DNA of 64,000 nt from Alphaproteobacteria bacterium (lineage in GTDB: Bacteria > Pseudomonadota > Alphaproteobacteria > UBA828), in assembly GCA_963422645.2 (NCBI GenBank), contig CAXXVO010000014.1:96001-160000 (forward strand). The letters are read 5' to 3'. Below the pieces are notes generated by a model. That model ran no database searches, was not told the origin of the DNA, and worked only from the letters and a program-made list of their open reading frames with translations. Of the stretch, positions 20,690 to 38,221 are shown in pieces (the first letter of the stretch is position 1; each line of letters starts with the position of its first letter). Position numbers and translations under genes: made by a program.

Positions 20690-21871
20690 TCAACCCAGCC
20701 GCTCGATCAGCGTCGCGTTGGCCATGCCGCCGCTCTCGCACATGGTCTGAAGGCCGAGGCGGCCGCCGCTCTCCTCCAGGCTCCCGATCAGGCTGGCCGT
20801 GAGCCGGCCACCCGATGCGCCGACGGGATGGCCGAAGGCGATGGCCCCGCCGTTGACGTTGACGCGGTCGAGGTCGGCACCCAGCGTCTCCGCCCAGGCC
20901 AGCACCACCGAGGCGAAGGCTTCGTTGACCTCGAAGCGGTCGATCTCGCCCAAGGTCCGGCCGCTTCGCGCCAGCAGCTTTTCCGTTGCCGGGATGATCC
21001 CCGTCAGCATGAGCAGGGGGTCGTCGCCCGAGACCGCGAAATGCGTGATCGCCGCACGCGGCGTCAGGCCCAGCCGCTGCACCGACTCCTCCGACGCGAT
21101 CAGCAGTGCCGAGGCGCCGTCGGAGACCTGGCTCGAATTCCCCGCCGTCACCACCCAGCCGATCTCGGGGAAGCGCTCGGCCTTGCCGGCATCCACGAAC
21201 GCGGGCTCCAGCGCGGCGAGCTTTTCCGCACTCGTATCGGGGCGGATGCCTTCGTCCGTCGAGGCCCCGTCGATGGGCAGGATGTCGCGCGCGAAGACGC
21301 CGCGCTCCTCGGCCGCCGCCGCGCGCCGGTGCGAGCGCAGCGCGTAGGCATCGAGGTCGGCGCGCGAGAGCCCCCAGCGGGCCGAGATCAGCTCGGCGGA
21401 AATGCCCTGGTGCACCAGACCGTCGGCGTAGCGCCGGCGCAGCATCGGCCCGAGATGGTCCTTGCCGCGCCGGTTGCTGCCCATCGGCACGCGGCTCATC
21501 ATCTCGACCCCGCAAGCGATGACGAGGTCGTAGGCCCCCGCCATCACGCCCTGCGCCCCAAAATCCATCGCCTGCTGCGCCGAGCCGCACTTGCGGTCGA
21601 TGGTGACGGCGGGAACGGTCTCGGGAAAGCCCGCCGCGAGCCAAGCCTGGCGGCCGATGTTGGCGGCCTGCTCGCCCGCCTGGATGACGCAGCCCGCGAT
21701 CACGTCGTCGACCGCGCCGGGATCGACGCCGGTGCGCGCGACCAGACCCTCGAGCGTCATCGCAAGCAGGTCGACCGGATGAACCGCGCTCAGCGCACCA
21801 TCCGCCCGCCCCTTGGCGAAGGGAGTGCGGACCACATCGATGATGAGGGCGCGGCGCATCCTAGCCGGCAC
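20690..21871 (-). CDS. Thiolase (acetyl-CoA C-acyltransferase)
   Basis: IDRKCGS (Cys), NEAFA, GHPVGASG, TMCESGG. Confidence 0.95.
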   Translation of the reverse strand: MPARMRRALIIDVVRTPFAKGRADGALSAVHPVDLLAMTLEGLVARTGVDPGAVDDVIAGCVIQAGEQAANIGRQAWLAAGFPETVPAVTIDRKCGSAQQAMDFGAQGVMAGAYDLVIACGVEMMSRVPMGSNRRGKDHLGPMLRRRYADGLVHQGISAELISARWGLSRADLDAYALRSHRRAAAAEERGVFARDILPIDGASTDEGIRPDTSAEKLAALEPAFVDAGKAERFPEIGWVVTAGNSSQVSDGASALLIASEESVQRLGLTPRAAITHFAVSGDDPLLMLTGIIPATEKLLARSGRTLGEIDRFEVNEAFASVVLAWAETLGADLDRVNVNGGAIAFGHPVGASGGRLTASLIGSLEESGGRLGLQTMCESGGMANATLIERLG

Positions 21872-23321
21872 GACGGAGCGAAACCGAGAGATTGGCGCTT
21901 TCCACCTCCACGTACTTCGAGGTGGAAAGCGCCATCAACTTGCGCACGTGTTCGAGCTCCGGCGTGGAGAGAATCGGGAAGTCGCGCTTCACCGGGCCCG
22001 CGGCCCGCATCCTCTCCAGGTCCGCCGCCGGGACCAGGGCGCGCAGGATCAGCTCGTCGTCATCGTCGGTGCCGTGGCGCTTGCGAAGCTCGGCCAAGGT
22101 GGGCTGCTCCGGCGGCTCGGCCAGCACCTCCTTGGCACGGGGCGCGGCCATGATCCGGTCCAACACGTCCGGATCGATGGGCGCTACCGGCTCGCCGTAG
22201 TGCCCGCCGGCATACTGGATCACCTCGTCCGGAATCACGGCGTAGCGCTCGCCGGTGACAATGTTGAGCACAGCTAGGGTGCCGACGAGCTGGGAGAAGG
22301 GCGTCGCCATGCCGGGGTAGCCCAGCTCGCGGCGCACGCGGCCGGTCTCCTCCAGCACGTCGTCCAGCCGGTCCGCCATCTCGTGCTGGACGAGCTGCGC
22401 CTTCAGCGTCCCCATCATGCCGCCCGGCACCTGGTGGTGCACGGAGAAGAGGTCGTATTCCTGCGGCACGCCCACGGGGAAGCCCGCCGCCGTGGCGACG
22501 CCCTCGAAGTGCTCCGCGATCTGCGGCAGGAGCGATCGATCGATATTGTGGGTATGGCCGAGATGCTCGACGTTCCGTGTCATCACCTCGACCGAGGGGA
22601 CGGAAGGGCCGTTCGCCATCGGCCCGCAGGCCGTGTGCAGGATACGGATGCCGAGCTCGATCGCCTCGACGTAGGCGCGGCCGGAGGCGCCCAGGAGGTT
22701 ATTCGAGTGGAACTCGATGGGCTTGCCGCGCGCGTTCGCCATGATGGCCGGCACCAGCGTGCGCATGCGGTCCGGCTCCAGCACGCCGCCCGTGTCGTAG
22801 AGCAGGAGCGTGTCGATATCCGGCGAGGCCGAGAGCCTGTCCGCTTTGTCGGCGTAGTAGTCGTCGGTGTGCACCGGGCTCAGCGTGAACATGATGGCGC
22901 CTGCCACCTCCGCGCCGAACTCCTTGGCCACCCTGGCGAGGCGGTGTGTCTTGTCGATGTTGAAGAGCACGTCGTAGATCCAAAAACTGCGGCAGCCGTG
23001 CACGCAGAGCTGCCGCATCCAGACGTCCATCAGCGCATCGGGCGTGACGCCGAAGGTGACGCTCGCATTGCTGCGCATGCCGCCCCGGATCGTGCTCTTG
23101 GGCATGGCGTCGACCAGGAGGTCGAGCCCCTCCCACGGATTCTCGCGGCATTGGCGGATCAGGACCTCGAAGAGGCTCGAGCCGGTGAGGTCCACCACCC
23201 GATAGCCGACCCGGTCGATCACCGGTGCAATGGGGAGCGCCATGCCGGCCTGCATGCGCATGCCCCACAGGCTCTGCTGTCCGTCCCGCATGGTCTCGTC
23301 GAGGAATTCGATGTGCGCCAT
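21861..23321 (-). CDS. Carboxyltransferase subunit, pyruvate carboxylase B/OadA-like with altered active site
   Basis: RDGQQSL, ENPWE, HQVPGGM, LGYP..ATPFSQLVG; YDTGG in place of KDMAG; HSN in place of HxH. Confidence 0.88.
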   Translation of the reverse strand: MAHIEFLDETMRDGQQSLWGMRMQAGMALPIAPVIDRVGYRVVDLTGSSLFEVLIRQCRENPWEGLDLLVDAMPKSTIRGGMRSNASVTFGVTPDALMDVWMRQLCVHGCRSFWIYDVLFNIDKTHRLARVAKEFGAEVAGAIMFTLSPVHTDDYYADKADRLSASPDIDTLLLYDTGGVLEPDRMRTLVPAIMANARGKPIEFHSNNLLGASGRAYVEAIELGIRILHTACGPMANGPSVPSVEVMTRNVEHLGHTHNIDRSLLPQIAEHFEGVATAAGFPVGVPQEYDLFSVHHQVPGGMMGTLKAQLVQHEMADRLDDVLEETGRVRRELGYPGMATPFSQLVGTLAVLNIVTGERYAVIPDEVIQYAGGHYGEPVAPIDPDVLDRIMAAPRAKEVLAEPPEQPTLAELRKRHGTDDDDELILRALVPAADLERMRAAGPVKRDFPILSTPELEHVRKLMALSTSKYVEVESANLSVSLRRAG

Positions 23322-23332
23322 CGTCGCTCCGC

Positions 23333-24691
23333 TCAGTGCATCAGCGAGGGCATGAAGACGTCCTCCAGCCAGCGCGTGTTGAGCCTGTTAGCCGTGAAGT
23401 CAGGGTGCCGCACCAAGTGCGCCTGGAACGCGAGGTTGGTGTCGATCCCGCCGATCTGAAATCGGTCCAGCGCGCCGCCCATGCGCTCCACCGCTTCGGC
23501 GCGGTCGCCAGCGCGCACGATCAGCTTCGCGATCATGCTGTCGTAGAAGGGAGACACGAAGGCACCCGGGCGGCAGTGGCTGTCTATGCGAATGCCCTGT
23601 CCCTCCGGTGCGCACCAGGCGTCGATCAGACCGGGCGAGGGCGCGAAGTCCCGCTCCGGCGCCTCGGCGTTGATCCGGCATTCGATGGCGTGGCCGGCAA
23701 GCGCGATGTCTTCCTGCGCGACGCTGAGCCCGCCGCCGCCCGCGATGCGCAACTGCTCCTCGATCAGGTCGATGCCGGCGACCTCCTCGGTCACGGGATG
23801 CTCGACCTGGATGCGGACATTGGCTTCGATGAAATAGGCCTCGCCGCGGTCAACGTCGTAGAGGAACTCGACCGTGCCGGCGCTCCGATAGTCGAGGTGC
23901 CGGGCGAGGCGGCAGGCGGCGTCGTGAATCTGCGTGCGCGCTTCGGCCGGCAGCGCCGCCGCCGGCGCTTCCTCCACCATCTTCTGGAAGCGCCGCTGCA
24001 CAGAGCAATCCCGCTCGCCGAAATGGACGACCGCGCCGTCGCCGTCGCCCATGATCTGCACCTCAACATGGCGCGCGTCCTCGACGAAGCGCTCAACGAA
24101 GAGCGTACCGTCGCCAAAGGCGGCCTTGGCCTCCGTCGATGCACGCTCGAAGCCATCGTCGATGTCCGCATCCCTTCGTGCGACGAACATGCCGCGCCCG
24201 CCGCCACCTGCGCTGGCCTTCATCAGCACCGGGTAGCCGACGGAGGCGGCGAAGGAGCGGGCCTCGGCTGCCGAATGGATACGGTCGGAGCCGGGGACGA
24301 TGGGCACGCCCGCTTCGATCGCGATGGTGCGGGCGGTGAGCTTGTCGCCGAGCCGCTCGATGGTCTCGGCCCGCGGCCCGACGAACGCGATTCCCTCCCG
24401 CTCGCACAGGCCGGCGAGAGCCGGGGACTCGGAGAGGAAGCCGTAGCCCGGATGCAGTCCGTCGCAGGCGGTGGCCTCGGCCGCATGCACAAGCAGGTTG
24501 GCGTTGAGGTAGCTCTCGCGCGCCGGCGCCGGCCCCAGCACCACCGCGCGGTCCGCGAGCTCCGCCGCCAAGCCCTCGCGGTCCGCGTCGGAGACCCCGA
24601 CAACGCACTCGAGCCCGAGCGCGCGGCAGGCGCTGACGATGCGCACGGCGATCTCCCCCCGGTTGGCGACGAAGACGCGCGAGAGGGCCAT
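23333..24691 (-). CDS. Biotin carboxylase subunit
   Basis: ANRGEIA, HPGYGFLSE, GGGGRG, ERDCSVQRR, RIQVEHPVTE, YDSMIAK. Confidence 0.95.
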   Translation of the reverse strand: MALSRVFVANRGEIAVRIVSACRALGLECVVGVSDADREGLAAELADRAVVLGPAPARESYLNANLLVHAAEATACDGLHPGYGFLSESPALAGLCEREGIAFVGPRAETIERLGDKLTARTIAIEAGVPIVPGSDRIHSAAEARSFAASVGYPVLMKASAGGGGRGMFVARRDADIDDGFERASTEAKAAFGDGTLFVERFVEDARHVEVQIMGDGDGAVVHFGERDCSVQRRFQKMVEEAPAAALPAEARTQIHDAACRLARHLDYRSAGTVEFLYDVDRGEAYFIEANVRIQVEHPVTEEVAGIDLIEEQLRIAGGGGLSVAQEDIALAGHAIECRINAEAPERDFAPSPGLIDAWCAPEGQGIRIDSHCRPGAFVSPFYDSMIAKLIVRAGDRAEAVERMGGALDRFQIGGIDTNLAFQAHLVRHPDFTANRLNTRWLEDVFMPSLMH

Positions 24692-25161
24692 CACGCCGTC
24701 TCGGCCGCTTCGGCCTCCGGCTCGACCAGAAAGAGCGGTACGCCAAACTCCACCATCTCGCCGTCCTCGACGCAGGCCTTGGCGATCCGGCCGCTGATCC
24801 CGGCCCGCACCGGCGTGAACAGCTTCATGACCTCGATCAGACAAACCTCGGTTGCCTCGCTGACCTGCTGGCCGACCTCCACGTAGGGCGCGATCCCCGG
24901 CTTGGGCGCGCGGTAGAAGGTGCCGAGATTGGGCGCCGTGATCGGCACAAGCCCATCGGCCGGCGCCGCTTCGGCCGGATCGGGAGGGGCCTGCTCCTCC
25001 GAGGCTACGCCAGCCTCCGTCGCCGCCGATCCGAGTGCCGCCGCATCCGCATCCTTCGAGAGCACCAGCTTCAGGCCGTCGGTCTCGAGCCGGAGCTCGT
25101 GCCAGTCCGAGCGGTCGAAGATGCGGATCAGCGCCTCGACCTCCTTGCGGTCGACGGTCAT
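24691..25161 (-). CDS. Biotin carboxyl carrier protein
   Basis: GTFYRAP and biotinylation motif EVMKL. Confidence 0.93.
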   Translation of the reverse strand: MTVDRKEVEALIRIFDRSDWHELRLETDGLKLVLSKDADAAALGSAATEAGVASEEQAPPDPAEAAPADGLVPITAPNLGTFYRAPKPGIAPYVEVGQQVSEATEVCLIEVMKLFTPVRAGISGRIAKACVEDGEMVEFGVPLFLVEPEAEAAETA

Positions 25162-26918
25162 GCAGCGGTCTCCGCGCGCGCGGCGGCACAGGCCGCAAGC
25201 AGTGCCGGCAGGGCGTGGCGCACGACGATGAAATCGAGACCGGCGGCGACGGCGGCCGCGACACCCGCATCGCTGGCGAGCGCGCCGCCCTTTGCGCCGG
25301 GAGTCCCCTCGAGCAGCGCGGGCAAGCGCTCCGGGTCCGCACCGCCCGGCAAGCGGTCGAGATCGACCGCGCCCTCCGGCGCCGCGTCGCCCGCGCGATA
25401 GACCGCCATCGGCGCGGCCGCGCGGGCCCATGACGTGATCTGGCGGAGGTAGGGATCGTCCGTCTCCGAAGGAACGCTCACCGGCAATGCGCCATCGAAC
25501 ACCTTCCCCGCCTTGCCGTCCACCGTCACCTCCCTGCCCGCAAGCGCTGCGTCCACGCCTTCGCCGCAGCCGACGACGCAGGGAACGCCGAGGGAGCGGC
25601 TTACCACGGCGGCGTGGGAGGTCGCACCCCCGGTCGCCGTCACGACAGCGCGGGCGGTGACCATGCCGTGCACGTCGTCCGGGCTGGTGGTCGGGCGCAC
25701 CAGCACAACGTCCTCGCCGGACGTGCCGCGCGCCTCGGCCGCATCGGCGTCCAGCACGACTTTGCCGATGCCGACACCGGGGCTCGCTCCCTCTCCCTCG
25801 GCGAGCAGGGAGGCGTTCTCCCCGGCGCCGTCGTCAAGGCGGGGCATGAGCAGCATGCGGACCTGGGCCGCGCTGACGCGGGCGAGTGCCTCGTCCGTGG
25901 AGATCCTTCCCTCATTCACCAGGTCGACCGCGACGCGCATGGCCGCGGCGGGAGCCCGTGCGGCGGTGCGGGTCTGCAACAGGTAGAGCGCGCCCTCTTG
26001 TACCGAGAACTCGATGTCCTGCACATCCCGGTTCAGCGCTTCGAGCCGGCGCGCGGCGTCGATCAGTGCGGCGTGCGCCTCCGGCAGGGAAGACGCCAGC
26101 GCATCCAGTCCCTGCGGCGTCCGCTGGCCGGAGACCACGTCCTCCCCCTGGGCGCGGGCGAGATACTCGCCGTAAGGCGCAGGCGCCCCGGTGAGCGGGT
26201 TGCGGCTGAAGAGCACACCCGTTCCGCTGTTCTCGCTGAGGTTGCCGAACACCATGGCTTGAACCGTGACGGCGGTCCCTGCGTCGTCCGGAAGCCCGTG
26301 ATGCCGGCGATATCGCTTCGCGCGCCGTCCGTTCCAGGAGTCGAAGACGGCGCGGACCGCGCCGAGAAGCTGATCGGCCGGCGCGTCCGGCACGCTACCC
26401 GCCGCCCCCGTCTCCGCAACGGTTGCGCGCCATGTCGCTGGGGTCCCTTGGGAAGGCAGCCCGTCGATCGCCGCCTTGAGCACGATGCGCGCGTACATCT
26501 CGTGGAAGCGCCGATGCGTGTCGCGGGCGAAGACAGCGTCGCCGCTCTCGGCTGCGAGCGCTGCCTCGATTTCCTCGTCGATCCCGAGATTGAGCACCGT
26601 ATCCAGCATACCCGGCATGCTGACGTCGGCGCCGGAGCGAACGGCCAGCAGCAAGGGGCGTTCGTGCGCGCCGAAGCGGCGCCCGGTCTCCGCCTCCAGC
26701 ATGGCGATGCCGGCGTGAAGCTCGTCGACGAGGCCGTCCGGCAGCGCGCCTTCGGCGAGATAGGCGCGGCAGGCCTCGGTCGTCGCCACGAAGGCGGGCG
26801 GCACCGGCAGGACTGCGTGGCGCATGACGGCGATGCCCCACGCCTTGCCGCCGATCAGCGCGCGGTCGGGCTGCGCCGCGCCGTCGAGGAAGAGCACCCA
26901 GCGGCCGACAGCACCCAT
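25158..26918 (-). CDS. PPDK-like dikinase: ATP-grasp plus phospho-His domain, lacking the pyruvate-binding barrel
   Basis: GGK, VPPAF, VRSGA..SMPGMLDTVLN, QAMVFGN, QGEDVVSG, DIEF, LLQTR, GGATSHAAVVSR; ends ~90 aa after the His domain. Confidence 0.92.
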   Translation of the reverse strand: MGAVGRWVLFLDGAAQPDRALIGGKAWGIAVMRHAVLPVPPAFVATTEACRAYLAEGALPDGLVDELHAGIAMLEAETGRRFGAHERPLLLAVRSGADVSMPGMLDTVLNLGIDEEIEAALAAESGDAVFARDTHRRFHEMYARIVLKAAIDGLPSQGTPATWRATVAETGAAGSVPDAPADQLLGAVRAVFDSWNGRRAKRYRRHHGLPDDAGTAVTVQAMVFGNLSENSGTGVLFSRNPLTGAPAPYGEYLARAQGEDVVSGQRTPQGLDALASSLPEAHAALIDAARRLEALNRDVQDIEFSVQEGALYLLQTRTAARAPAAAMRVAVDLVNEGRISTDEALARVSAAQVRMLLMPRLDDGAGENASLLAEGEGASPGVGIGKVVLDADAAEARGTSGEDVVLVRPTTSPDDVHGMVTARAVVTATGGATSHAAVVSRSLGVPCVVGCGEGVDAALAGREVTVDGKAGKVFDGALPVSVPSETDDPYLRQITSWARAAAPMAVYRAGDAAPEGAVDLDRLPGGADPERLPALLEGTPGAKGGALASDAGVAAAVAAGLDFIVVRHALPALLAACAAARAETAA

Positions 26919-26920
26919 GC

Positions 26921-27523
26921 CTATTCCTGCCGCGTGCGGCCGAGGATTCGCAGCAGGTCTTCGTGAAGCTCGAACCACACCGTGTGATAGGACTCGATCC
27001 GTGCGCCGCTGACCCACTCGATAGCGCCGTCCTCGGCCTTCTCCAGCGCCGCTTCCAGCTTGCACGCGTAAATCGCGAGGCGCGGCAGGCCGGCGCTCAG
27101 TTGCTGGAGGATCGCCTCCGCCCGCTCGTGCAGGGCGCCCAGACGATCGATCAGCCTATCGTCATAGTCCTTGTTGGTGTGATCGTTCAGCACGCTCTCG
27201 CCGTCGATCTCGATGGTCTGCCACGCGGTCATCAGCGCCTTGAGGTCTCGATTGATCGCCTCGAAGCGCTCGCAGGCGGAGGCGAACGCCGGGTCGGCCC
27301 GTTGCGCGGCAAAGAGCCTGGAATAGGCGCCGTCGAGGGCCACGCGCGCGACAGGCGTCAGGGAATACGCCTCGCCGGCGCGCAGGGCGCGGCCCTTGGC
27401 CACCGCCTCGTCGAGCGCCGCCTGCACCTCGGTCTCGTCGAGTCCGACTGCTTTGGCGATCGCCGCGGCGTCCGCATGCTTCTTGATCGCGAGGCCGTGG
27501 AGGACGAGATAGGTGTCGGTCAT
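26921..27523 (-). CDS. MarR-like winged-helix protein of the type found beside truncated ppdK genes (Rv1126c-like)
   Basis: N-terminal HTH; C-terminal W..., NDH.D..YD and SYHTVWFELHEDL motifs. Confidence 0.75.
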   Translation of the reverse strand: MTDTYLVLHGLAIKKHADAAAIAKAVGLDETEVQAALDEAVAKGRALRAGEAYSLTPVARVALDGAYSRLFAAQRADPAFASACERFEAINRDLKALMTAWQTIEIDGESVLNDHTNKDYDDRLIDRLGALHERAEAILQQLSAGLPRLAIYACKLEAALEKAEDGAIEWVSGARIESYHTVWFELHEDLLRILGRTRQE

Positions 27524-27526
27524 GGC

Positions 27527-29020
27527 TCAGGCACTCTCCCGCTCGGCCGTCGTGTCGGCCGAGGCGAGGACGCGGTCTCGGACCGCGCGGCGCAGGAGCT
27601 TGCCTGCCCCGCTCTTGGGCAGCGTGTCCCAGATCTCGACGCTCTTCGGGCACTTGTAGCCGGCGAGCCTCTCGCGACAGAACTGCCGCACTGCCTCCGG
27701 GTCGAGACCCGGCCGCCCGGCAACGACGGCATGGACGCGATCGCCCCACTTCTCGTCGGGCAGTCCCACCACGGCGGCCTCGACGACGCCCTCGTGGGCC
27801 AGCAGCACATCCTCGATCTCGCGCGGGTAGACGTTGTAGCCGCCGCTGATGAGCATGTCGTTCTTGCGGTCGAGAATGTAGAAGAAGCCGTCCTCGTCGA
27901 TGCGGCCGATGTCGCCGGTATGGAGCCAGCCGTTGCGGAAGGCCCTGGCGGTCTCCTCCGGGCGCTTCCAGTAACGGGCCATGAGCTGGGTCCCGCGGCA
28001 GACGATTTCGCCCCGCTCGCCGGTCGGCACCGGCTTGTCGTCCTCGTCGAAGACCGCCACGTCCGCGGTGGTGTAGGGCCGCCCGCACGAGCCCACGCGG
28101 TCGTGATCCTCCGGCCCGAGATAGGTAATCACCATGGGGGACTCCGCCTGGCCGTAGGTCTGGGCGAAGACCGGGCCGAAACGGGCCATGGCGCGCTCCA
28201 GCAGGCTCGGCGCGATGGGCGATGCGCCGTAGCAGATGCGTTTGAAGCGGAGGTCCGCCGTCTCCAGCGCGGGCTCCTCCATGATCATCGCCAGCATGGT
28301 CGGCACCAGAAAGGTGTGGGTCGCGCGCGCCTGCGCAGCCATGGCGATGAAGCCGACGGCGTCGAAGTGCGGCATGATCCACTGGTGCACGCCCCGTACC
28401 AGCGCGGGCAGGAAGAAGGCGCCACTCGCGTGCGCGATGGGGGCGGCGTGGAGGAAGCGGTCGCCCGACGCGAGGTCGGGCACCAGGTCCATGAGAAAGG
28501 CCGAGAGCTCCGCAGTCTCGCCCAGCGTGGTGAGCGTGACCGCCTTGGGCGCGCCGGTGGTCCCGCCCGTGAAGCCCAGGCGATAGGGCGCCTCAAGCTC
28601 GCGGTCCACGCAGCAGACGCCGGGTGGTCCCTCGTCGATGAGCCGGCGGAGCGCGTCGGCGCCGTAGACCATGGCCGCGCCGAAGCCCTTGGCGCCCTCG
28701 ACATCGTCGTGGATGAGGCCGCGGGCGCCGCTGTCGCCCAGCTTGTAGCGATGGTCCGCCGCCGTCTCGCGCACGTTGAGCGAGACCCGCACGAGGCCGG
28801 ACTTGGCGATCGCGTAGTAGGCGATCAGGCAATCGATCCCGTTGGGCAGCAGCACGCCGACGCGGTCGCCCAGCTCGAAGCCTTCCGCGAGCAGCGCGTT
28901 GCCGAGCCGGTCCGTCGCCGCGTCGAAGGCGCGGAAGCTCAGCGTGCGCGTCCCTTCGGTCAGCGCCGGTGCCTCGCCGTACATGAGCGCCGCGCGCCGG
29001 ATGTACTCGCCGATCTGCAT
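27527..29020 (-). CDS. Acyl-CoA synthetase (AMP-binding)
   Basis: FTGGTTGAPK, YGQAE, LHTGD, DRKNDMLISGG, GYKCPK, GK. Confidence 0.95.
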   Translation of the reverse strand: MQIGEYIRRAALMYGEAPALTEGTRTLSFRAFDAATDRLGNALLAEGFELGDRVGVLLPNGIDCLIAYYAIAKSGLVRVSLNVRETAADHRYKLGDSGARGLIHDDVEGAKGFGAAMVYGADALRRLIDEGPPGVCCVDRELEAPYRLGFTGGTTGAPKAVTLTTLGETAELSAFLMDLVPDLASGDRFLHAAPIAHASGAFFLPALVRGVHQWIMPHFDAVGFIAMAAQARATHTFLVPTMLAMIMEEPALETADLRFKRICYGASPIAPSLLERAMARFGPVFAQTYGQAESPMVITYLGPEDHDRVGSCGRPYTTADVAVFDEDDKPVPTGERGEIVCRGTQLMARYWKRPEETARAFRNGWLHTGDIGRIDEDGFFYILDRKNDMLISGGYNVYPREIEDVLLAHEGVVEAAVVGLPDEKWGDRVHAVVAGRPGLDPEAVRQFCRERLAGYKCPKSVEIWDTLPKSGAGKLLRRAVRDRVLASADTTAERESA

Positions 29021-29060
29021 GAGTTCAGGCCGCCTGGACGTGTGGGAGCGGGGCGCGTCT

Positions 29061-30614
29061 CTAGTCGCGGGGGAGCGCCGCCAGCTCCGCAGCGCCGAGC
29101 GATGCCCCGCGACCCTGGATCTTGCGCGCCCGCTCCTGCTCCAAATGGTACATCTCGTCCGCGCGCGCCGTGTCGTGGTTGTACTTGAGCCAGGTCTCGT
29201 CCAGGAAACGATAGCGGTCGGACTGCGGCGCGAAGGCGCGGACCCGCGCGTTGTACTCCTCCAGCGTCAGCACGCCCTGGCTCGTGCGGTAGCGGTCGGC
29301 CTTGGCCGGGAGCGTGGTGGCGCCGGGATAGACCGGGCCGCAAGTGGGCACGTACTCCTCGCCGTCCAGGATCGCGTAAGGGATCGGCGTATACATGCGG
29401 GTCGGGCCGTTGCCGTGCTGCATCATGCTGTAGGACGAAAGGCGATGGCTCGCCAGCGTCAGCAGTCCCACCAACTCGCCCAGGCAGTCGCGGCTGAACT
29501 CGTCGTTGAGCAGGGGGCGGAAGCGCTCCGCCCGCTCGTCGATCAGCATCCAGTCCTCTCGGGCGTAGACGCCGGCGACGTGGGCGAGGTCCTTGCAGAT
29601 GCCGAAGTAGGTGAGCGCGCCGGCGTCGAGCATCTGGTCGCGGCTCCAACCGGCGATGCGCCTCCAGAGCCGCGCCGTCGCTTCCTTGAAGAGCCCGTCC
29701 AGCGTGCGGAATATCTCGGTCAGGGTCTCGCGACTCTCCATCCCCACCGGAACGTGCCCCTCGGTGAGCGGGTCGGAGGTGTAGAGGCCGACGCCGATGA
29801 TACTCTCCGCCCTGAACTCAGGCTCGGATTCGAAGCTTCCCCAGTCGTCGACCAGGTAGAAGTGGCAGTCCTTCACCAGCATCGGGACGGTGAGGTTGTT
29901 GTAGGGAATGTCGGCCGCCACGTCGTCGAGCCAGGGGAAGTCGCCTTCGCCGAGGTCCATGAAGTCGCGGACGATCATCTCCACGCCGTCGGCGACTTTG
30001 TAGGGCCCGGTGTTGAGCAGACTGATGCGGCTCTCGCAGCTCACCAGGAAGCCGTATTGCGCCGCAGAAGCCATGAACTGGGTCGCCGCGCTGTGCAGCG
30101 CATCGCCGGCCTCGCAGCCGTAGGCGTCGGACTCGAAGACCTGAAGCCGCCGCTCCGGCAGGATCTGGCAGCGGTGGCCGAACTCCTTATTGGTGATGTG
30201 GCCGTCGTTACGGTGCCAGGAGAGTTGCAGGCGTTTCCAGAAGTCCATCAGGTAGACGAGGTCTTCCACGGCGTCCTGCGGGCGCAGAAGGCCCATATTG
30301 ATGAGCCACTCGCGGCCGAGCAGGTAGAAGCCCGGCATTCCCCAGCCCATGGCGCTCTTGCCCGGCGGGCGTCCCTCCCGAGCGCGATCGCCGATCTCTT
30401 CCGCCGTCATCACGCTCTCCACCTTTCGCAAGAGCGAGGGGTAGCGGTAGAAGGCGTTGAGGTAGGAGAGCAGCATGTAGGGCGGCACCGGAAAGAGCTT
30501 GGATTCCTGCACGGTGCGCGTGACGCAGAGCCAGTAGGTCTCGTCGGTGAAGGTTTGCAGGAGGTTGTTGGTCTCCAGCAGCTGAGCGTAGGAGAGGCGA
30601 GGCGCGCCGACCAT
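29061..30614 (-). CDS. Hypothetical protein (517 aa), translationally coupled to the His-domain gene
   Basis: Long ORF with protein-like composition; TGATG stop/start overlap at 30612-30616; no motif I recognise. Confidence 0.8.
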   Translation of the reverse strand: MVGAPRLSYAQLLETNNLLQTFTDETYWLCVTRTVQESKLFPVPPYMLLSYLNAFYRYPSLLRKVESVMTAEEIGDRAREGRPPGKSAMGWGMPGFYLLGREWLINMGLLRPQDAVEDLVYLMDFWKRLQLSWHRNDGHITNKEFGHRCQILPERRLQVFESDAYGCEAGDALHSAATQFMASAAQYGFLVSCESRISLLNTGPYKVADGVEMIVRDFMDLGEGDFPWLDDVAADIPYNNLTVPMLVKDCHFYLVDDWGSFESEPEFRAESIIGVGLYTSDPLTEGHVPVGMESRETLTEIFRTLDGLFKEATARLWRRIAGWSRDQMLDAGALTYFGICKDLAHVAGVYAREDWMLIDERAERFRPLLNDEFSRDCLGELVGLLTLASHRLSSYSMMQHGNGPTRMYTPIPYAILDGEEYVPTCGPVYPGATTLPAKADRYRTSQGVLTLEEYNARVRAFAPQSDRYRFLDETWLKYNHDTARADEMYHLEQERARKIQGRGASLGAAELAALPRD

Positions 30615-31366
30615 CACGAAGCCTCCTGGGCCAGCTTCCAGATGTTGGCGGTCACTTCCTCGCCCTTCTGATAGGCCTCCGCCGTTTTCGCCGCCGCGGC
30701 GGTCTCCATCTCCAGGCGCTGACCTTCCTTGATCCCGGTGATCTTGGCGTTCATGAGGCAGGGAATACCGTATTCCCGCGCGAGAATCCCGAGGTGGGAA
30801 CGCACGGTGCCGCCCATGCAGATGATGCCGGTGAATTGCTCCAGGATCGGCGCGGTGAGGGTGCCGCCGGAATCGTCGATGATGGCGATGGTCTCGGGCG
30901 GCACGCCGTCGCCGAGATAGCGCATGACCTGGCTGCTGGAGCGGACGTAGCGCGCGGTGCCTACGGTATTCTCGGCGACGCGCATCACGTTGTCGCCGAC
31001 GCCGCAAAGCGCCCTGCCCTCTGCATCGGCCTCGCCGGAGGGCGCGTCCGGGTGCTCCATGGTCCAGTCGGGGTCGTCACCCAGGATGCCTTCGGCGGGC
31101 TTATAGGCCTCGGGCCGTTCGTTCACCGAAATCACCGCCGAGAAGTCGTAGCGGTGGCCGGCGTCGAGCAGCTTCCTTTCGATCTCCTCGAAATCGGCCG
31201 CGGTGATCAGATCGTAGGACTTGTCGAAGACGAAACTGTTCCAGTCGACCCCGCTCTCGCCCAGGCGGCGCCTCACCAGGTCCTTGATCGCGCTGTGGAA
31301 GGCCTCGACGGTGGGCGAGTGTGCCTGATCGCCGTACTTGTCCGTGTCCACGTAAAGCTTGGCCAC
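30614..31366 (-). CDS. Stand-alone PEP-utilising mobile (phospho-His swivel) domain protein with N-terminal extension
   Basis: GIICMGGTVRSHLGILAREYGIPCLM; GTG start with RBS GGGGAG. Confidence 0.85.
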   Translation of the reverse strand: MAKLYVDTDKYGDQAHSPTVEAFHSAIKDLVRRRLGESGVDWNSFVFDKSYDLITAADFEEIERKLLDAGHRYDFSAVISVNERPEAYKPAEGILGDDPDWTMEHPDAPSGEADAEGRALCGVGDNVMRVAENTVGTARYVRSSSQVMRYLGDGVPPETIAIIDDSGGTLTAPILEQFTGIICMGGTVRSHLGILAREYGIPCLMNAKITGIKEGQRLEMETAAAAKTAEAYQKGEEVTANIWKLAQEAS

Positions 31367-31513: not shown

Positions 31514-32302
31514 ATGCCAGCGGAGAGCGATCTCTCCCACCACCGCATCCTGGTCACCAATGACGACGGCATCCATGCCAGGGGGCTGAAAATTCTCGAG
31601 GCGATCGCGCGGAGCCTGTCCGACGATGTCTGGGTCGTCGCGCCTGATCACGAGCGGAGCGGCGCCGGCCATTCCATCTCGATGCACACGCCGATCCGCC
31701 TGCGCCAGATGGGGGAGAAGCGCTACGCGGTGGACGGTACGCCCACCGACTGTGCGCTCATGGCGATCCACGAGCTGATGACCGAAAGCCCGCCCACGGT
31801 CCTCCTCTCCGGCATCAATCGCGGCGCCAATCTCGCGGATGACATGACCTATTCGGGCACCATCGCCGCCGCGATGGAGGGGACCCTGCTCGGCATCCGC
31901 TCGATCGCGCTCAGCCAGGTGTTCACCATGGGCGGTGAGGCGCTCTGGGCCACGGCGGAGGCCTTCGCGCCGGACGTGATCCAAACCCTCATGCGCCTGC
32001 CGGACTGGCCCTCCGGCACGCTGGTCAACGTCAACTTCCCGGATGCGCTGCCGGAATCTGTGAGCGGCGTCCGCATCACCACCCAGGGGCAGAGGCCGCC
32101 CGGCTCCTTCACCATCGACGGGCGGATCGACACGCGCCACGTGCCCTACTACTGGGTGGAGATCAGCTACAAGAACGGCGGCAAACACCCCGGCACCGAT
32201 CTCTTAGCAATCCACGAGAACGCGATATCGGTCACGCCGATCCAGCTCGACATGACCAATCATGGCTGGCGCGGCCACTTGACGGAGGCGTTCGGCTCGT
32301 AA
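31514..32302 (+). CDS. surE: SurE-family 5'/3'-nucleotidase/phosphatase
   Basis: ILVTNDDGI, DGTPTDC, SGINRGAN, YSGT, NVNFP, ISVTPI. Confidence 0.93.
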   Translation: MPAESDLSHHRILVTNDDGIHARGLKILEAIARSLSDDVWVVAPDHERSGAGHSISMHTPIRLRQMGEKRYAVDGTPTDCALMAIHELMTESPPTVLLSGINRGANLADDMTYSGTIAAAMEGTLLGIRSIALSQVFTMGGEALWATAEAFAPDVIQTLMRLPDWPSGTLVNVNFPDALPESVSGVRITTQGQRPPGSFTIDGRIDTRHVPYYWVEISYKNGGKHPGTDLLAIHENAISVTPIQLDMTNHGWRGHLTEAFGS

Positions 32303-32404: not shown

Positions 32405-33784
32405 ATGACACTATCATTTGGTGTAATTCGGGCAGGGCTGCTTGGCGCAGCCCTGTGTGTGGGCCTCGTGGCCGGCCCGCAGCTGGCCAAGGCCGAGGAC
32501 ACCTTCAAGTTCGGCGGCGTCTTCACGCTCTCGGGTCCGGCCTCCTTCCTTGGTCTCTTCGAGGAAGCGGCCGTGAGGCTCGCCGTCGAGCAGTTCATGA
32601 AGGGCGATTGCATCGTCGAGGCCGTTCCGCCGCAGCCCTGCGAGGGCGGCGGGCTCAAGATCGGAGACAAGGTCGTCCCCATCGAGTGGACGGCCTACGA
32701 CGACGTCTCCGAGGACAAGAAGTCGATCGACGCCGTCATCCGCCTGGTCGAGCAGGACGAAGCCCGGGCAATCTGGGGCCCGCGGATGAATTCGGCGTTG
32801 CTCTCGGCTGCGTCGATCCTCGATCCGCAGGGAATCATCAGCATCTGCGCGATCTGCTCGAGCCCGGCGATGACCGTGGGCCGCGAGTACGGCCACGACA
32901 TCACCGACACCGGCGTGATCGAGAAGCACGGCATGGGCGAGCTCATCCACGAATCGTCCGAGAGGCTGGCGGAGCACGGCATCGATCCCGCGCTCTTCGA
33001 TGGGCGCAAGAAGCTCGGCTTCATCGGCCGGAACGAGCTTTACACCGTGCATGGCTCCATCGGCTGGCAGGAAGCGGTGGAGAAGGGCGGCGGCAGGTAC
33101 GAGTACCAGCACGACTGGGCGGTGCTCTATCCCTTCGGCACCACCGACTTCGCGCCCCACGTCGCCAGGCTCGCCGAGCAGGATCCCGACATCGTCCTGA
33201 TGGATGCCTACATCTTCCCCGACATGCTGGCGATCATGAGTGAGATGAAGAAGCAGGGGCTCGACTATGAGACCGGCGAGATCATTCTGCTCGGCAACGA
33301 CGTGCTGATGCTGCAGGTCTTCGTCGACGTGGCCAAGGATCAAGGCATCAACATGTCGTCGGGCTACGTCTGGGGTTGGCAAGAGCATAACCCGGCGCAG
33401 GACGAAGCCACGCTGGCGCGGGTCGAGAAATACGTGCCCATCTACAACGCGAAGTACGGCGACACCGAGGTCGGGAGCTCGAGCCCCTTCGATCGCGGCG
33501 CCTACGACGCCGCCATCTGGTTCCTCTACGGCGTGCAGGCCTCGGGCGATCACACCGACAACGACAAGATCGTGGAAGCCTGGCGCAGCCTGAAGATCAA
33601 CGGCCTGCGCGGGCCGACGAACGAGTTCTTCACCCGGCCCGATACCGGCGAGAAGACCGGCCAGCTGTTCGCGACCGAGTACATCATCGGCGTCGCGGAC
33701 GACAAGGTCTTCTACACCGGCATCAGCTATCGCGACGAGCTCTTCTACGGGCCCTACGTCTACGGCGACAAGCTGCCGAAGTAG
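32405..33784 (+). CDS. ABC transporter substrate-binding protein (LivK-like)
   Basis: Signal peptide, LSGPA, TTDFAP, YDA; lies upstream of LivH/M/G/F-type genes. Confidence 0.88.
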   Translation: MTLSFGVIRAGLLGAALCVGLVAGPQLAKAEDTFKFGGVFTLSGPASFLGLFEEAAVRLAVEQFMKGDCIVEAVPPQPCEGGGLKIGDKVVPIEWTAYDDVSEDKKSIDAVIRLVEQDEARAIWGPRMNSALLSAASILDPQGIISICAICSSPAMTVGREYGHDITDTGVIEKHGMGELIHESSERLAEHGIDPALFDGRKKLGFIGRNELYTVHGSIGWQEAVEKGGGRYEYQHDWAVLYPFGTTDFAPHVARLAEQDPDIVLMDAYIFPDMLAIMSEMKKQGLDYETGEIILLGNDVLMLQVFVDVAKDQGINMSSGYVWGWQEHNPAQDEATLARVEKYVPIYNAKYGDTEVGSSSPFDRGAYDAAIWFLYGVQASGDHTDNDKIVEAWRSLKINGLRGPTNEFFTRPDTGEKTGQLFATEYIIGVADDKVFYTGISYRDELFYGPYVYGDKLPK

Positions 33785-33836
33785 CCCTGCGGCGGGGGCG
33801 GTCTAGGCCGGGTTCCGCAGGTTGAGAAGACGCTGG

Positions 33837-33876
33837 GGCGGCGCCTGCCCGCGAGGGCGCGCGCCGCCTCTCTTTT
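33837..33876 (+). terminator. Intrinsic terminator-like hairpin after the SBP gene
   Basis: GGCGGCGC..GCCC-GCGA-GGGC..GCGCCGCC followed by TCTCTTTT. Confidence 0.55.
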
Positions 33877-34018
33877 GCCCTCAATCGCCGGGCGCTCGCT
33901 CCGCGAGCTTGGCTCCGCGCCATGCGGCGCGCCGGCGCGGTCGCGCCGGCCAGACCGCTTCGCGGCCCGGTTTTTCTGACGTCCATACTTTGTCGCCTGC
34001 CGGCAAGGTCGGGATTCC

Positions 34019-34894
34019 GTGACCGCGTTCGCTCAGCAGCTCATCTACGGCGCCTCCTACGGCATGAACCTTGCCGTGGCGGCGGCGGGGTTGGCCCTCA
34101 TCTTCGGCGTCTACCGGGTCATCAATCTCGCCCACGGGCAGCTCATCATGCTCGGCGGCTTCGTGGCCTACGTGGTCGCGACGCAGCTCGGCACGCATTT
34201 CTTCGTCGGCTTCTTCGCCGCCATGATCGTCATGGGGCTGCTCAGCATCGTGCTGGAGAACGCTGTCTTCCGCTTCCTCCAGCGCCGTCCGCTCACCGAC
34301 CAGCTGCTGGCGTCGCTCGGCATCTACATGGTGCTGGGCACCACGGCGCTGCGTATCTGGGGGGACTTCGAAGCCCGGCCGATCAACATGCCGGGCGAGG
34401 ACTGGGCGCTGACAGCCGGTGAAATCCGTATCGACGGTGCGCGACTGGTCACCATCGCCATTACTCTCGTCCTGTTCGCATTGCTCTATTTCGTCGTCTA
34501 CCGCACCCATCTCGGGCGGACCATGCGCGCCACCGCCCAGGGGGAGGAAACCGCCGCCCTGATGGGCATCAAGAAGCGCCGGGTGGCGGCCATCGTGTTC
34601 TTCCTCGGCGGCGCGCTCGGCGGCGCTGCCGGCGCCATGCTCGGCGCGCTCTTCAACGTGCGGCCGGACATGGGCTTCCAGCCGCTGCTGATGGCGCTCG
34701 TCATCATCATCTTCGGGGGCATGGGCAGCATCGCGGGCTCCATCGTCGCCGGCCTCATCCTCGGCATTCTCTACAACCTCACGGTGTTCTACGTCGGCTC
34801 CAAGCTCGGCGATCTGGTGCCCTTCCTGGTGCTTCTGGCGATTCTGATGATCCGCCCTCAGGGGCTCTTCGGCCTGCCGGATCGGAACGCATGA
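34019..34894 (+). CDS. Branched-chain amino acid-type ABC permease (LivH-like)
   Basis: GLALIFG..VINLAHG, GRTMRATAQ, A.LMGI, GGMGS. Confidence 0.93.
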   Translation: MTAFAQQLIYGASYGMNLAVAAAGLALIFGVYRVINLAHGQLIMLGGFVAYVVATQLGTHFFVGFFAAMIVMGLLSIVLENAVFRFLQRRPLTDQLLASLGIYMVLGTTALRIWGDFEARPINMPGEDWALTAGEIRIDGARLVTIAITLVLFALLYFVVYRTHLGRTMRATAQGEETAALMGIKKRRVAAIVFFLGGALGGAAGAMLGALFNVRPDMGFQPLLMALVIIIFGGMGSIAGSIVAGLILGILYNLTVFYVGSKLGDLVPFLVLLAILMIRPQGLFGLPDRNA

Positions 34895-35928: not shown

Positions 35929-35934
35929 CGGCCA

Positions 35935-36684
35935 ATGGACGCGATCCTCGCGATCCGCAACCTGAGCAAGCGCTTCGGCGGCGTCGAAGCCGTGCGCGAA
36001 GTGAGCTTCGACGTGCCACGCGGCGCGCTGGTCGGCTTGATCGGGCCCAACGGCGCCGGCAAGACGACCCTCGTCAACCTCGTCACCAAGCACGCGACGC
36101 CCGATGCTGGCACGGTGACGCTGGACACGAAACCGATCCACCGCCTGCCGTCCTACAAGGTCGCGCGCAGTGGCCTCAGCCGCACCTACCAGAAGAACCG
36201 CCTCTTCACCGAGGAGTCGGTGGAGGAGAACATCAGGACGGCGATGATCTGGGGCGGCCGGCACGGGGGCCGTGACCTCAGCTATCCCGGCTGCGCCGGC
36301 GACGAGGATGCCCGATGCGACGCGCTGCTCGAATTCTTCGAGCTGGAGGCGGTCCGGGGCGACCTGCCGACCGATCTCAGCCACCTGATGCGCCGGCGCG
36401 CGGAGATCGCACAGGCGCTGGCGCTCGGCCCCAAGGTCCTGCTGCTCGACGAGCCCTTCGCCGGCTTCAGCCGCGAGGAGTCCTTCGACCTGATCGAACA
36501 TCTGCGCGAATGCCAGCGCGGCGGCCTCACCATGCTCCTGATCGACCACAACATGGAAGTGGTCATGGACGTCTGCGAGTACCTGTTCGTCATGCATCAC
36601 GGCGCGCTGCTGGTCTCGGGCACGCCAGAGGAGATCCGCGCCAACGAGCAGGTGGTCAGCATCTATCTCGGCGGCGAGCACTGA
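35935..36684 (+). CDS. ABC ATPase (LivG-like)
   Basis: Walker A GPNGAGKTT, Walker B LLLDEP, C-terminal YLG. Confidence 0.93.
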   Translation: MDAILAIRNLSKRFGGVEAVREVSFDVPRGALVGLIGPNGAGKTTLVNLVTKHATPDAGTVTLDTKPIHRLPSYKVARSGLSRTYQKNRLFTEESVEENIRTAMIWGGRHGGRDLSYPGCAGDEDARCDALLEFFELEAVRGDLPTDLSHLMRRRAEIAQALALGPKVLLLDEPFAGFSREESFDLIEHLRECQRGGLTMLLIDHNMEVVMDVCEYLFVMHHGALLVSGTPEEIRANEQVVSIYLGGEH

Positions 36685-36685
36685 G

Positions 36686-37393: not shown

Positions 37394-37428
37394 GCGACGC
37401 TCGCCGCCCGAAACAGGAGGATCGCGCC

Positions 37429-38202: not shown

Positions 38203-38221
38203 GCGCTCAGGGAGACGCACG

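Follow-up and report, generated by a model that had tools for sequence, protein, structure and literature searches.

A conserved bacterial operon places a truncated pyruvate phosphate dikinase homologue, a second swivel histidine and two proteins outside known families beside a biotin-dependent carboxylase

A nine-gene operon on the minus strand (positions 20690–31366) of the window, the 64,000-nucleotide stretch of alphaproteobacterial DNA analyzed here, looks from its gene content like an undescribed route to activate and carboxylate a small molecule. Profile searches and reading of the open reading frames in the window gave the gene order sw250, p517, acyl-CoA ligase, p200, PPDKt, BCCP, BC, CT and thiolase. 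Two swivel proteins each carry a histidine, His191 in sw250 and His435 in PPDKt. The pairing of sw250 with p517 and the presence of both histidines are more than chance, since sw250 lies directly 5′ of p517 in 78/78 loci that contain both, and each histidine is retained in at least 98% of the sequences compared (76 for His191, 58 for His435). An earlier note on this DNA had described an operon built around the swivel proteins; that operon is real, but its extent was drawn too small, as it continues to position 20690 through BCCP, BC, CT and thiolase. The acyl-CoA ligase between p517 and p200 had also been overlooked, as had the biotin carboxylase and the thiolase, and the presence of these three enzymes gives the dikinase genes a pathway context.

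The arrangement was compared across 80 related loci on contigs taken from one genome per species, a subset of 59 being 12 kb or longer. Alpha-, beta- and gammaproteobacteria share this order, as does the plasmid pRB98 of Rhodococcus oxybenzonivorans, where the encoded proteins are 42–54% identical and an OB-fold protein, a thiolase and a Y_phosphatase3 protein close the operon. PPDKt is present in 55 of the 59 longer loci, p200 stands directly 5′ of it in 57/59 loci, and PPDKt is followed by BC in 50/51 loci and BC by CT in 47/49. Thiolase follows CT in 44 of the 59 longer loci. The acyl-CoA ligase is 3′ of p517 wherever both occur (63/63 loci); in L063, L068, L075 and L079 no ligase gene separates p517 from p200.

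PPDKt (586 residues, 25158–26918) is a truncated pyruvate phosphate dikinase (PPDK) homologue. Pfam analysis identified PPDK_N (143.5 bits, cut-off 27) and PEP-utilizers (83.5 bits, cut-off 23.1) domains, with no match to the PEP-utilizers_C barrel (PF02896). The protein also matched NCBIfam NF004531/PRK05878 over profile positions 8–532 of 534 (708.9 bits, cut-off 456), a family that we take to include Rv1127c (VadK), and fell below the full-length PPDK equivalog TIGR01828 (495 bits versus a cut-off of 843). The earlier reading of this gene as an ATP-grasp domain with a GGATSHAA swivel and without the barrel is thereby borne out. Compared with pyruvate phosphate dikinase and PEP synthase, PPDKt is alignable (residues 2–538 of the 874-residue PPDK chain 9pzl, E 4.5e-114) but stops short of that barrel. 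Its swivel spans residues 402–471 (25506–25715), with His435 encoded at 25614–25616, and is followed by a poorly conserved C-terminal tail of about 100 residues. The PPDKt stop codon overlaps the BCCP start codon as ATGA. A separate PPDK match occurs elsewhere in the genome; it lies in an open frame of 898 aa on contig C3, as long as a full PPDK.

The second swivel protein, sw250 (250 residues, 30614–31366), is stand-alone, as had been proposed: it contains one PEP-utilizers domain (PF00391) at residues 158–218 (30713–30895), scoring 32.9 bits against a cut-off of 23.1. Its swivel motif is GGTVRSHLGILAREYGIPC, in which His191 is encoded at 30794–30796; relative to the G-G-x-x-S/T-H pattern, GGTVRSH holds one additional residue following GG. 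The triad R189-S190-H191 is invariant across 20 aligned sequences; loss of the second histidine among homologues, which the earlier note named as refuting its two-histidine dikinase, is not what was seen. The N-terminal portion (approximately residues 1–150) belongs to no known family, and the best sequence alignment of sw250 among PDB entries, to the rifampin phosphotransferase swivel of 5fbs, is weak (E 0.21). The TGATG coupling to the 517-aa protein was confirmed at 30616–30612, where the final A of the sw250 stop codon TGA (30616–30614) is also the first base of an in-frame ATG (30614–30612).

From that ATG, p517 comprises 517 residues (29061–30614), or 518 if the GTG at 30617, one codon upstream, is the start. 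It matched no Pfam or NCBIfam family and no sequence among PDB chains. With the whole 518-residue confident model as query, Foldseek and VIA wide matched no solved fold, and no rifampin phosphotransferase (RPH) entries were among the fold matches; the ESM Atlas yielded nothing for p517 (best score 0.81). Among 401 genomes sampled from the phylum, a profile of distant p517 relatives matched one, namely the genome of the window itself. Distant homologues are either fused to a swivel domain or encoded directly 3′ of one: we found swivel and p517-like fusions in P0177 and P0189 (Gordonia otitidis), and triple fusions of swivel, p517-like and p200-like regions in P0333 and on Rhodococcus opacus B4 pROB02. 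Short swivel and p517-like pairs had no ATP-grasp, p200 or carboxylase gene nearby in 7/7 long metagenome loci, and the swivel and p517-like loci of Methylibium PM1 and R. opacus B4 likewise had no ATP-grasp gene nearby. Such pairs stand alone, so the module's core can function in the absence of both PPDKt and carboxylation. The view of p517 as a novel acceptor domain thus holds as regards its swivel partner, supported by the fusions and a complex model, and its separation from known families; p517 is the proposed acceptor or substrate domain of the dikinase, a role that the model is consistent with.

The 200-aa product of the gene between the ligase and PPDKt, p200 (26921–27523), had been labeled an HTH protein. 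Its AF2 model (pLDDT 94.5) shows a winged helix at residues 3–55, in agreement with that label, followed by a helical bundle bearing the invariant motif SYHTVWFELHED; Foldseek matches were restricted to winged-helix pieces and were weak (E ≥ 0.033). The regulatory role that the label implied did not hold. Fusions join p200 to p517 in P0068, P0098 and P0121 (Burkholderia ambifaria), to swivel and p517-like regions in P0333 (hhalign probability 98.8%, E 1.2e-16), and to a PPDK-like chain in P0369 (hhalign 99.3%, E 8.6e-21). Because of these fusions to p517 and to PPDK-like chains, p200 is, judged from sequence, a dikinase subunit and not a regulator of the operon, a candidate function that they contradict.

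Structure prediction of a complex, of the kind suggested in the earlier note, was carried out on p517, p200 and sw250 and returned an interface with a score of 0.87, compared with 0.24 for the best control. In the calibration, 116 of 157 solved complexes attained that mark, as did 2 of 215 mismatched pairs; the calibration is only rough here because the model was given our own alignments. Contact agreement between runs was at least 86%, and partner pLDDT was at least 85. The modelled interface brings together sw250 residues 189–191 and p517 residues 33–46 and 179–197, so that the His191 loop is predicted to rest on conserved p517 surfaces, the score being the model's own confidence.

PEP-utilizing dikinases employ one histidine that swings between two active sites. 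A design with two swivel histidines and a 200-aa subunit would extend this one-histidine picture by a relay step, and a His-to-His relay between PPDKt and sw250 appears plausible from the sequences. Comparable designs recur elsewhere. P0405 (Mycobacterium sp.) carries an ATP-grasp domain, a swivel, a middle domain and a second swivel in a single chain, and P0369 combines an acceptor domain, a swivel, an ATP-grasp domain, a further swivel and p200. Plasmids of M. avium and M. branderi encode a truncated PPDK (48–50% identical to PPDKt), a p200 homologue (200/201 aa) and a separate swivel-bearing “PEP-utilizing enzyme”. The truncated PPDK with its own histidine, together with p200, is thus found with other swivel-bearing acceptors in both domain orders and in independent fusions, which makes His-to-His transfer more plausible.

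This recurrence beside second-swivel acceptors, along with the retention of His435 and the T-S-H motif in at least 98% of PPDKt sequences, weighs against a single-carrier scheme, in which the ATP-grasp domain of PPDKt charges His191 directly and the PPDKt swivel is a leftover or regulatory element, with no His-to-His step. Known two-component dikinases do act in this way: they use one swivel histidine (PMC12167813), and PpsB and HpeI charge PpsA and HpeH directly (PMC12167813; bioRxiv 10.1101/2022.04.28.489975). The sw250 swivel is also nearer to swivels of the rifampin phosphotransferase type. The ATP-grasp component of PpsAB, HpeHI, AcvAB and CreHI is, however, swivel-less, a feature by which such systems are recognized and which PPDKt, with its own swivel, does not share. 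We consider direct charging of His191 unlikely. Rifampin phosphotransferase and the phenylphosphate synthases PpsAB and CreHI resemble the operon in having an ATP-grasp domain, a swivel histidine and a separate substrate domain, but contain one histidine only, and it is with the former that the sw250 swivel aligns best, if weakly. A literature search found no description of swivel-to-swivel phosphotransfer, which does not prove its absence; an obligate swivel-to-swivel relay, if true, would be a mechanism new to PEP-utilizing enzymes.

A close described counterpart of PPDKt in domain content is the truncated PPDK of M. tuberculosis, VadK (Rv1127c), which likewise has an ATP-grasp domain and a swivel histidine and no PEP/pyruvate domain. 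VadK is reported to autophosphorylate its swivel His422 with ATP and Mg and to gain about 80 Da in the assay, corresponding to one phosphate; it is presented as a kinase with a regulatory role that has methylcitrate-cycle enzymes among its interaction partners (PMC13400623). Separation from its operon partner, Rv1126c, is reported to need 2 M NaCl. By gene arrangement, this pairing matches that of the truncated PPDK and p200 homologue on the M. avium and M. branderi plasmids. PPDKt and p200 could by the same token form a VadK-like regulatory histidine kinase with the carboxylase or other enzymes as its targets, leaving sw250, p517 and p200 as a separate phosphotransferase with another donor, and the swivel and p517-like pairs without a nearby ATP-grasp gene are compatible with this. 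We regard it as quite improbable: fusions tie p200 to p517 as well as to PPDK-like chains, PPDK-like and acceptor modules are combined in single chains, and PPDKt is translationally coupled to BCCP and rarely missing from the longer loci. Whereas VadK is a methylcitrate-cycle regulator without a known phospho-acceptor, the gene partners of PPDKt point to a small-molecule kinase. The operon in this way offers a working model for VadK; if the model is true, the VadK acceptor is still to be found. A broader proposal, which we advance tentatively and with some doubt, is that a truncated PPDK and p200 constitute a generic phospho-donor pair that would relay phosphate obligatorily from swivel histidine to swivel histidine, serving exchangeable acceptors (p517-type here, RPH-like in mycobacteria), with p517 as a phospho-acceptor of new fold and VadK–Rv1126c in the same class.

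Downstream of PPDKt, Pfam identified all the domains of a biotin-dependent carboxylase with a PycB/OadA-type carboxyltransferase. BCCP, the biotin carboxyl carrier protein (156 residues, 24691–25161; Biotin_lipoyl 55.5 bits, cut-off 22.1), contains the Met-Lys biotinylation motif as EVMKL; the biotin carboxylase BC (450 residues, 23333–24685) matches CPSase_L_D2 (234 bits), Biotin_carb_N (126.5 bits) and Biotin_carb_C (129.5 bits); and the carboxyltransferase CT, of PycB/OadA/5S type (486 residues, 21861–23321), matches PYC_OADA (96.1 bits, cut-off 27), with an HMGL-like score below the cut-off (23.1 versus 29 bits). The thiolase gene (393 residues, 20690–21871; Thiolase_N 212.6 bits, Thiolase_C 130.2 bits) overlaps the end of the CT gene. 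The ligase (497 residues, 27527–29020) is an AMP-forming acyl-CoA ligase, with AMP-binding (223 bits) and AMP-binding_C (71.7 bits) domains. We take the canonical CT metal site to consist of an Asp, a carbamylated Lys and two His, and assigned these ligand roles to the positions aligned with V. cholerae OadA (2nx9). Asp17 and His207 are kept in CT (D13 and H205), while Lys178 and His209 are replaced by Tyr175 and Asn207, so that two of the four ligands are gone; among the CTs of the cluster, Tyr occupies the Lys178 site in 59/59 and Asn the His209 site in 48/59. A CT without the carbamylated lysine is of enzymological interest by itself. Two acetoacetate-decarboxylase-family genes lie nearby and could mean decarboxylation instead of carboxylation.

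The gene content recalls two ketone-carboxylating systems, Hpe of Rhodococcus rhodochrous GD02 (HpeHI, HpeCBA, HpeD, HpeE, HpeF) and Acv of Sphingobium sp. SYK-6 (AcvAB, AcvCDE, AcvF). The phosphorylated aryl ketone is reported to be the sole form carboxylated by HpeCBA and AcvCDE, with a phosphatase and a CoA ligase acting next (PMC9618137; bioRxiv 10.1101/2022.04.28.489975). On gene content alone, the likeness extends to a PEP-utilizing-family dikinase beside BCCP, BC, a PycB-like CT, a phosphatase and an acyl-CoA ligase. The Hpe/Acv kinase pairs a swivel-less ATP-grasp protein with an RPH-like substrate domain bearing a single swivel histidine; here, in contrast, the protein with the ATP-grasp domain itself bears a swivel histidine, and the acceptor is distributed over three proteins, sw250, p517 and p200, of which the last two fall in no known family. 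The phosphatase is of SurE or Y_phosphatase3 type instead of HAD, and thiolase stands where Hpe and Acv have a hydrolase. Orthology of the carboxylase with Acv/Hpe was considered and is unsupported: the Acv-like CT on Sphingomonas bisphenolicum pBAR1 retains the Lys and His that the operon CT has lost, which indicates that the carboxylase is no straightforward Acv/Hpe orthologue and may have another mode of action. A literature search found no paper on the operon, p517 or p200, although supplementary hpe-homologue clusters (PMC9618137 Fig. S5; the bioRxiv preprint) may include relatives, and a search on XccABC found nothing.

A SurE-family phosphatase gene (31520–32302, plus strand; 196.6 bits) is divergent from the operon and is the second of two copies in the genome. 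Housekeeping synteny was rejected as an explanation for its position because the other copy occupies the usual serS-surE-M23/LysM context, and the operon-side protein is a candidate pathway phosphatase. A divergent SurE gene is upstream in 26/59 loci and likewise on Novosphingobium resinovorum pSA1; Y_phosphatase3 occurs in 13/59 loci and also 3′ of the R. opacus triple fusion. PPDK and PEP synthase form a pyrophosphoryl-histidine and normally discard the γ-phosphate. PPDKt might instead split such an intermediate between two parallel carriers, leaving one phosphate on His435 and passing the other to His191, for two substrate sites or two substrates, and in 13 loci the cluster is found with two unrelated phosphatase families, SurE and Y_phosphatase3. 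Near the operon in the window, only a SurE copy is found, and the mass gain of VadK corresponds to a single phosphate (PMC13400623); we view two parallel carriers as very improbable.

Under the relay reading, the ATP-grasp domain of PPDKt would bind ATP and phosphorylate its own His435, as family membership and the behavior of VadK suggest. p200, fused to either side in other proteins, would be the structural or catalytic subunit tying PPDKt to p517. sw250 would sit on p517 through its N-terminal domain, and the His191 loop would swing into a conserved arginine-bearing p517 surface where the substrate is phosphorylated, as the fusions and complex model suggest. The phosphoryl group would most likely travel from His435 to His191, the alternative being that the ATP-grasp domain charges His191 directly. 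BCCP, BC and the divergent CT would then carboxylate the phospho-intermediate with biotin, the SurE paralogue, or the Y_phosphatase3 protein in other genomes, would remove the phosphate, the acyl-CoA ligase would make a CoA thioester, and the thiolase would cleave it. This pathway reading follows Hpe/Acv logic because of the parallel phosphorylate-then-carboxylate gene content. We give slightly better than even chances to its being a catabolic module in which a four-protein dikinase phosphorylates a small substrate, probably a methyl ketone or hydroxy-ketone, followed by carboxylation, dephosphorylation, CoA activation and thiolysis. Such a module would represent a third kinase type and extend the recently described strategy of phosphorylation followed by biotin-dependent carboxylation for inert ketones. 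p517 and p200 are two sizeable new families, currently annotated as “hypothetical” or “MarR/transcriptional regulator”, and the operon is carried by bacteria of sponges, soil, lakes and the sea.

The minus strand of the window carries a tight run of genes from sw250 to a thiolase; the window also shows many spurious ORFs because of its G+C content of about 68%. The run consists of sw250 (30614–31366), a 250-aa protein with a PEP-utilizers swivel domain (32.9 bits against a cut-off of 23.1); p517 (29061–30614), a 517-aa protein without a Pfam or NCBIfam match; an AMP-forming acyl-CoA ligase (27527–29020); p200 (26921–27523), a 200-aa protein without a credible match; PPDKt (25158–26918), a truncated homologue of pyruvate phosphate dikinase (PPDK) with PPDK_N and PEP-utilizers domains; the biotin carrier protein BCCP (24691–25161); biotin carboxylase (BC, 23333–24685); a PycB/OadA-type carboxyltransferase (CT, 21861–23321); and the thiolase (20690–21871). 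PPDKt passes NF004531 with 708.9 bits (cut-off 456) and fails the full-length PPDK model, reaching only 495 of the 843 bits needed. The sw250/p517 junction is a TGATG overlap and the PPDKt/BCCP junction an ATGA overlap, and the CT and thiolase genes share 11 bases. The earlier note had given the motifs and coordinates of both swivel proteins correctly, and the operon genes that it described are present, but the operon extends further than it had proposed. Housekeeping genes flank the cluster at 13059–19603, namely homoserine dehydrogenase, a semialdehyde dehydrogenase family gene, the PHA synthase gene phaC (15105–16952) and rplM-rpsI (18646–19603). Elsewhere in the genome (G000 contig C3, 119412–121031), the truncated-PPDK model matches a second time (505 bits), in an 898-aa open frame of full-PPDK length.

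The PPDKt swivel is PPDK-like, its alignment with a C. symbiosum-type PPDK reaching residue 538, and the nearest relative of the sw250 swivel is, weakly, that of rifampin phosphotransferase. His435 of PPDKt (TSHAA) is retained in at least 98% of 58 sequences. Loss of the second histidine in homologues had been named as a refutation of the proposed His-to-His relay; we found no such loss, with His191 of sw250 (RSHLGIL) retained in at least 98% of 76 sequences and R189-S190-H191 invariant across a 20-row alignment. Sequence comparison shows two swivel domains, each with an invariant histidine, in a conserved operon. In our model, PPDKt would autophosphorylate and the phosphate would reach a substrate on p517 via His191. 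Within this model, we tentatively favor a relay from His435 to His191; direct charging of His191 by the ATP-grasp domain and parallel carriage of phosphate by both histidines are the alternatives. Two observations speak against the model: in 7/7 long metagenome loci, short swivel and p517-like pairs have no ATP-grasp or carboxylase gene near them (in R. opacus B4 and Methylibium PM1 an ATP-grasp gene is likewise missing from the surroundings), and acetoacetate-decarboxylase (ADC)-family genes lie close to the operon.

Of 8000 scored candidates, 987 are p517 homologues at E ≤ 0.001; the 120 best share 63–99% identity and are all unnamed or annotated as "hypothetical". The p517 family is rare: when 401 sampled genomes of the phylum were searched with a profile of distant p517 relatives, the only match was the genome from which the window comes. 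Scanning one genome per species for a pattern yielded 248 relative-encoding stretches, of which the best 80 loci were kept. These originate from alpha-, beta- and gammaproteobacteria, with cultured carriers including Roseiarcus fermentans, Rhodosalinus halophilus, Marinibaculum pumilum, Antarcticimicrobium luteum and Sphingobium estronivorans. Among these best 80 of 248 loci, adjacency was preserved for sw250 and p517 (78/78), p517 and the ligase (63/63), p200 and PPDKt (57/59), PPDKt and BC (50/51), and BC and CT (47/49). Four loci (L063, L068, L075 and L079) lack the ligase in the interval from p517 to p200. Of these loci, 59 span 12 kb or more, and among them ORF clusters were present for sw250 in 59, p517 in 57, PPDKt in 55, the ligase in 54, CT in 51, p200 in 49, BC in 47 and BCCP in 46, with a thiolase after CT in 44; as loci cut by contig ends were counted too, each value is a minimum. 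Tandem CT paralogues follow PPDKt or BC in some loci from betaproteobacteria, Marinibaculum and Sneathiellaceae, with three copies each in L039, L055 and L061 and two in L069; no biotin carboxylase was seen within the stretches analysed of L039 and L055.

The gene order is repeated at 42–54% identity on plasmid pRB98 of Rhodococcus oxybenzonivorans, where the operon ends with genes for an OB-fold protein, an SCPx-type thiolase and a Y_phosphatase3. Upstream of this full operon (L128, 2851–7221), pRB98 carries two further short swivel and p517-like units, of which one is split into parts of 125 aa and 398 aa and the other is a 542-aa fusion; a hypothetical protein comes after each unit. Another carrier is Novosphingobium resinovorum SA1.

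Domain fusions indicate that p517 and p200 belong to a single acceptor module as its subunits. Specifically, p517–p200 fusions of 717–728 aa are P0068, P0098 and P0121, the last of these from Burkholderia ambifaria AMMD and relatives. An exhaustive search returned 430 p517 relatives, including ~370-aa forms that match p517 residues 15–370 at 25–34% identity. Two proteins of this type, P0177 and P0189 (the latter from Gordonia otitidis), bear a swivel domain at the N-terminus, and in metagenome loci of the same type the swivel and p517-like parts are either fused or encoded by adjacent overlapping ORFs. Two longer proteins of 768–773 aa, P0333 and P0335 (the latter from a Pseudonocardia MAG), also start with a swivel, which in P0333 is followed by a p517-like part (26% identity, E 3e-16), with a p200-like part coming last (hhalign 98.8%, E 1.2e-16). 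A 793-aa protein with this same composition, followed by a Y_phosphatase3 gene, is encoded on pROB02 of R. opacus B4.

The structure model of p200 (pLDDT 94.5) shows a winged helix at the N-terminus together with a helical bundle, and its fold matches were weak and confined to the winged helix. In a three-chain complex prediction of sw250, p517 and p200, sw250 scored 0.87 versus 0.24 for the best control; the score mark is reached by 116/157 solved complexes versus 2/215 mismatched pairs, a calibration that is only rough here, given the custom alignments and the folding of three chains. Contacts agreed by at least 86% between runs, with partner pLDDT of at least 85. The predicted interface involves residues 1–88 and the His loop 185–191 of sw250, together with p517 residues 33–46, 106–113, 179–197 and 361–381, which include the near-invariant R34 and invariant R197 of the family alignment. 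Separately, a plasmid of Methylibium petroleiphilum PM1 (L130, 6681–9570) carries p517-like and p200-like genes, the latter annotated as a MarR regulator, along with the gene for a small swivel protein, all adjoining a B12-dependent acyl-CoA mutase/MeaB/AMP-ligase cluster; no ATP-grasp gene was seen in these surroundings.

PPDKt and p200 also recur as a pair together with other swivel-bearing acceptors. Four of the 120 listed PPDKt-related proteins with a length of 1027 aa or more have no PEP/pyruvate barrel, and all four carry PF27448. In P0405 (Mycobacterium sp., 1063 aa), a PPDKt-like part (residues 27–538, 43% identity, swivel GGLVSHAAV) is followed by a middle region matching rifampin phosphotransferase chains (residues 772–1059) and then a second swivel (GGAMSHGAII). 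The order is reversed in P0369 (1321 aa), in which an acceptor domain and swivel precede a PPDKt-like part (46% identity) that holds a swivel of its own, followed by a full p200 domain (99.3%, E 8.6e-21). By sequence, the fusions in this family join sw250, p517 and p200 to one another and connect p200 with PPDK-like chains. On M. avium and M. branderi plasmids, a truncated PPDK, 48–50% identical to PPDKt, is directly followed by a 200/201-aa p200 homologue, with a separate "PEP-utilizing enzyme" bearing a C-terminal swivel nearby. The nearest ESM-Atlas clusters to p200 are 201-aa actinobacterial proteins (score 0.99). VadK (Rv1127c), the truncated PPDK of M. tuberculosis, autophosphorylates with ATP/Mg on swivel His422, and its operon partner Rv1126c raises solubility and requires 2 M NaCl for removal (PMC13400623). 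As a lead, Rv1126c is a candidate p200 homologue.

Precedent for the pathway comes from the Hpe pathway (PMC9618137), its kinase (PMC12167813) and the Acv system (bioRxiv 10.1101/2022.04.28.489975). In these systems, a dikinase of the PEP-utilizing family transfers phosphate to an aryl methyl ketone (PMC9618137; PMC12167813; bioRxiv 10.1101/2022.04.28.489975), and a BCCP/BC/PycB-like carboxylase takes the phosphorylated form only, after which a phosphatase and CoA ligase act (PMC9618137; bioRxiv 10.1101/2022.04.28.489975). By its gene content, the window operon follows this pathway logic with different component proteins; its phosphorylated product would be carboxylated, dephosphorylated, CoA-activated and thiolysed. 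We found no publication on the operon, p517 or p200 in the open-access library searched. The operon would fall into an already known kind of system, in which a dikinase of the PEP-utilizing family is coupled to a biotin carboxylase, with three unusual features: a second swivel histidine, an acceptor whose predicted fold has no match, and a p200 subunit seemingly common to VadK-type proteins, the link to Rv1126c itself being a lead.

Of the two SurE genes in the genome, one lies in the usual serS-surE-M23/LysM housekeeping context (G000 contig C14, 143526–144071), and a second copy is divergent from and beside the operon (31520–32302, plus strand). A divergent SurE gene adjoins the operon in 26/59 related loci, and this second copy is a candidate for the pathway phosphatase. 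Y_phosphatase3, found in 13/59 loci and in the Rhodococcus operon, is a further candidate. Downstream of the second SurE, the plus strand (32405–40448) encodes an ABC transporter of the Liv type (binding protein, two permeases and two ATPases), with two ADC-family genes (37429–38202 and 38135–39010) and an SDR (39636–40448); ADC-family genes occur in 19/59 related loci. A GntR/FCD regulator also neighbours the operon.

We aligned CT to V. cholerae OadA, whose Asp17, carbamylated Lys178, His207 and His209 we take, from the structural literature, to be metal ligands. Asp17 and His207 are kept, whereas the Lys178 position is Tyr (Tyr175) in 59/59 cluster CTs and the His209 position is Asn (Asn207) in 48/59. 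The Rhodococcus pRB98 CT has Glu in place of Lys. In contrast to the operon CT, the Acv-like CT on plasmid pBAR1 of Sphingomonas bisphenolicum, annotated as 'biotin carboxyl carrier protein', retains Lys and HxH, so that the reading of CT as a plain Acv-type orthologue is not supported. On pBAR1 (L134, 3972–9357), a 'Tm-1-like ATP-binding domain' protein precedes the Acv-like BCCP-BC-CT-HAD set, replacing the PpsAB-like kinase.
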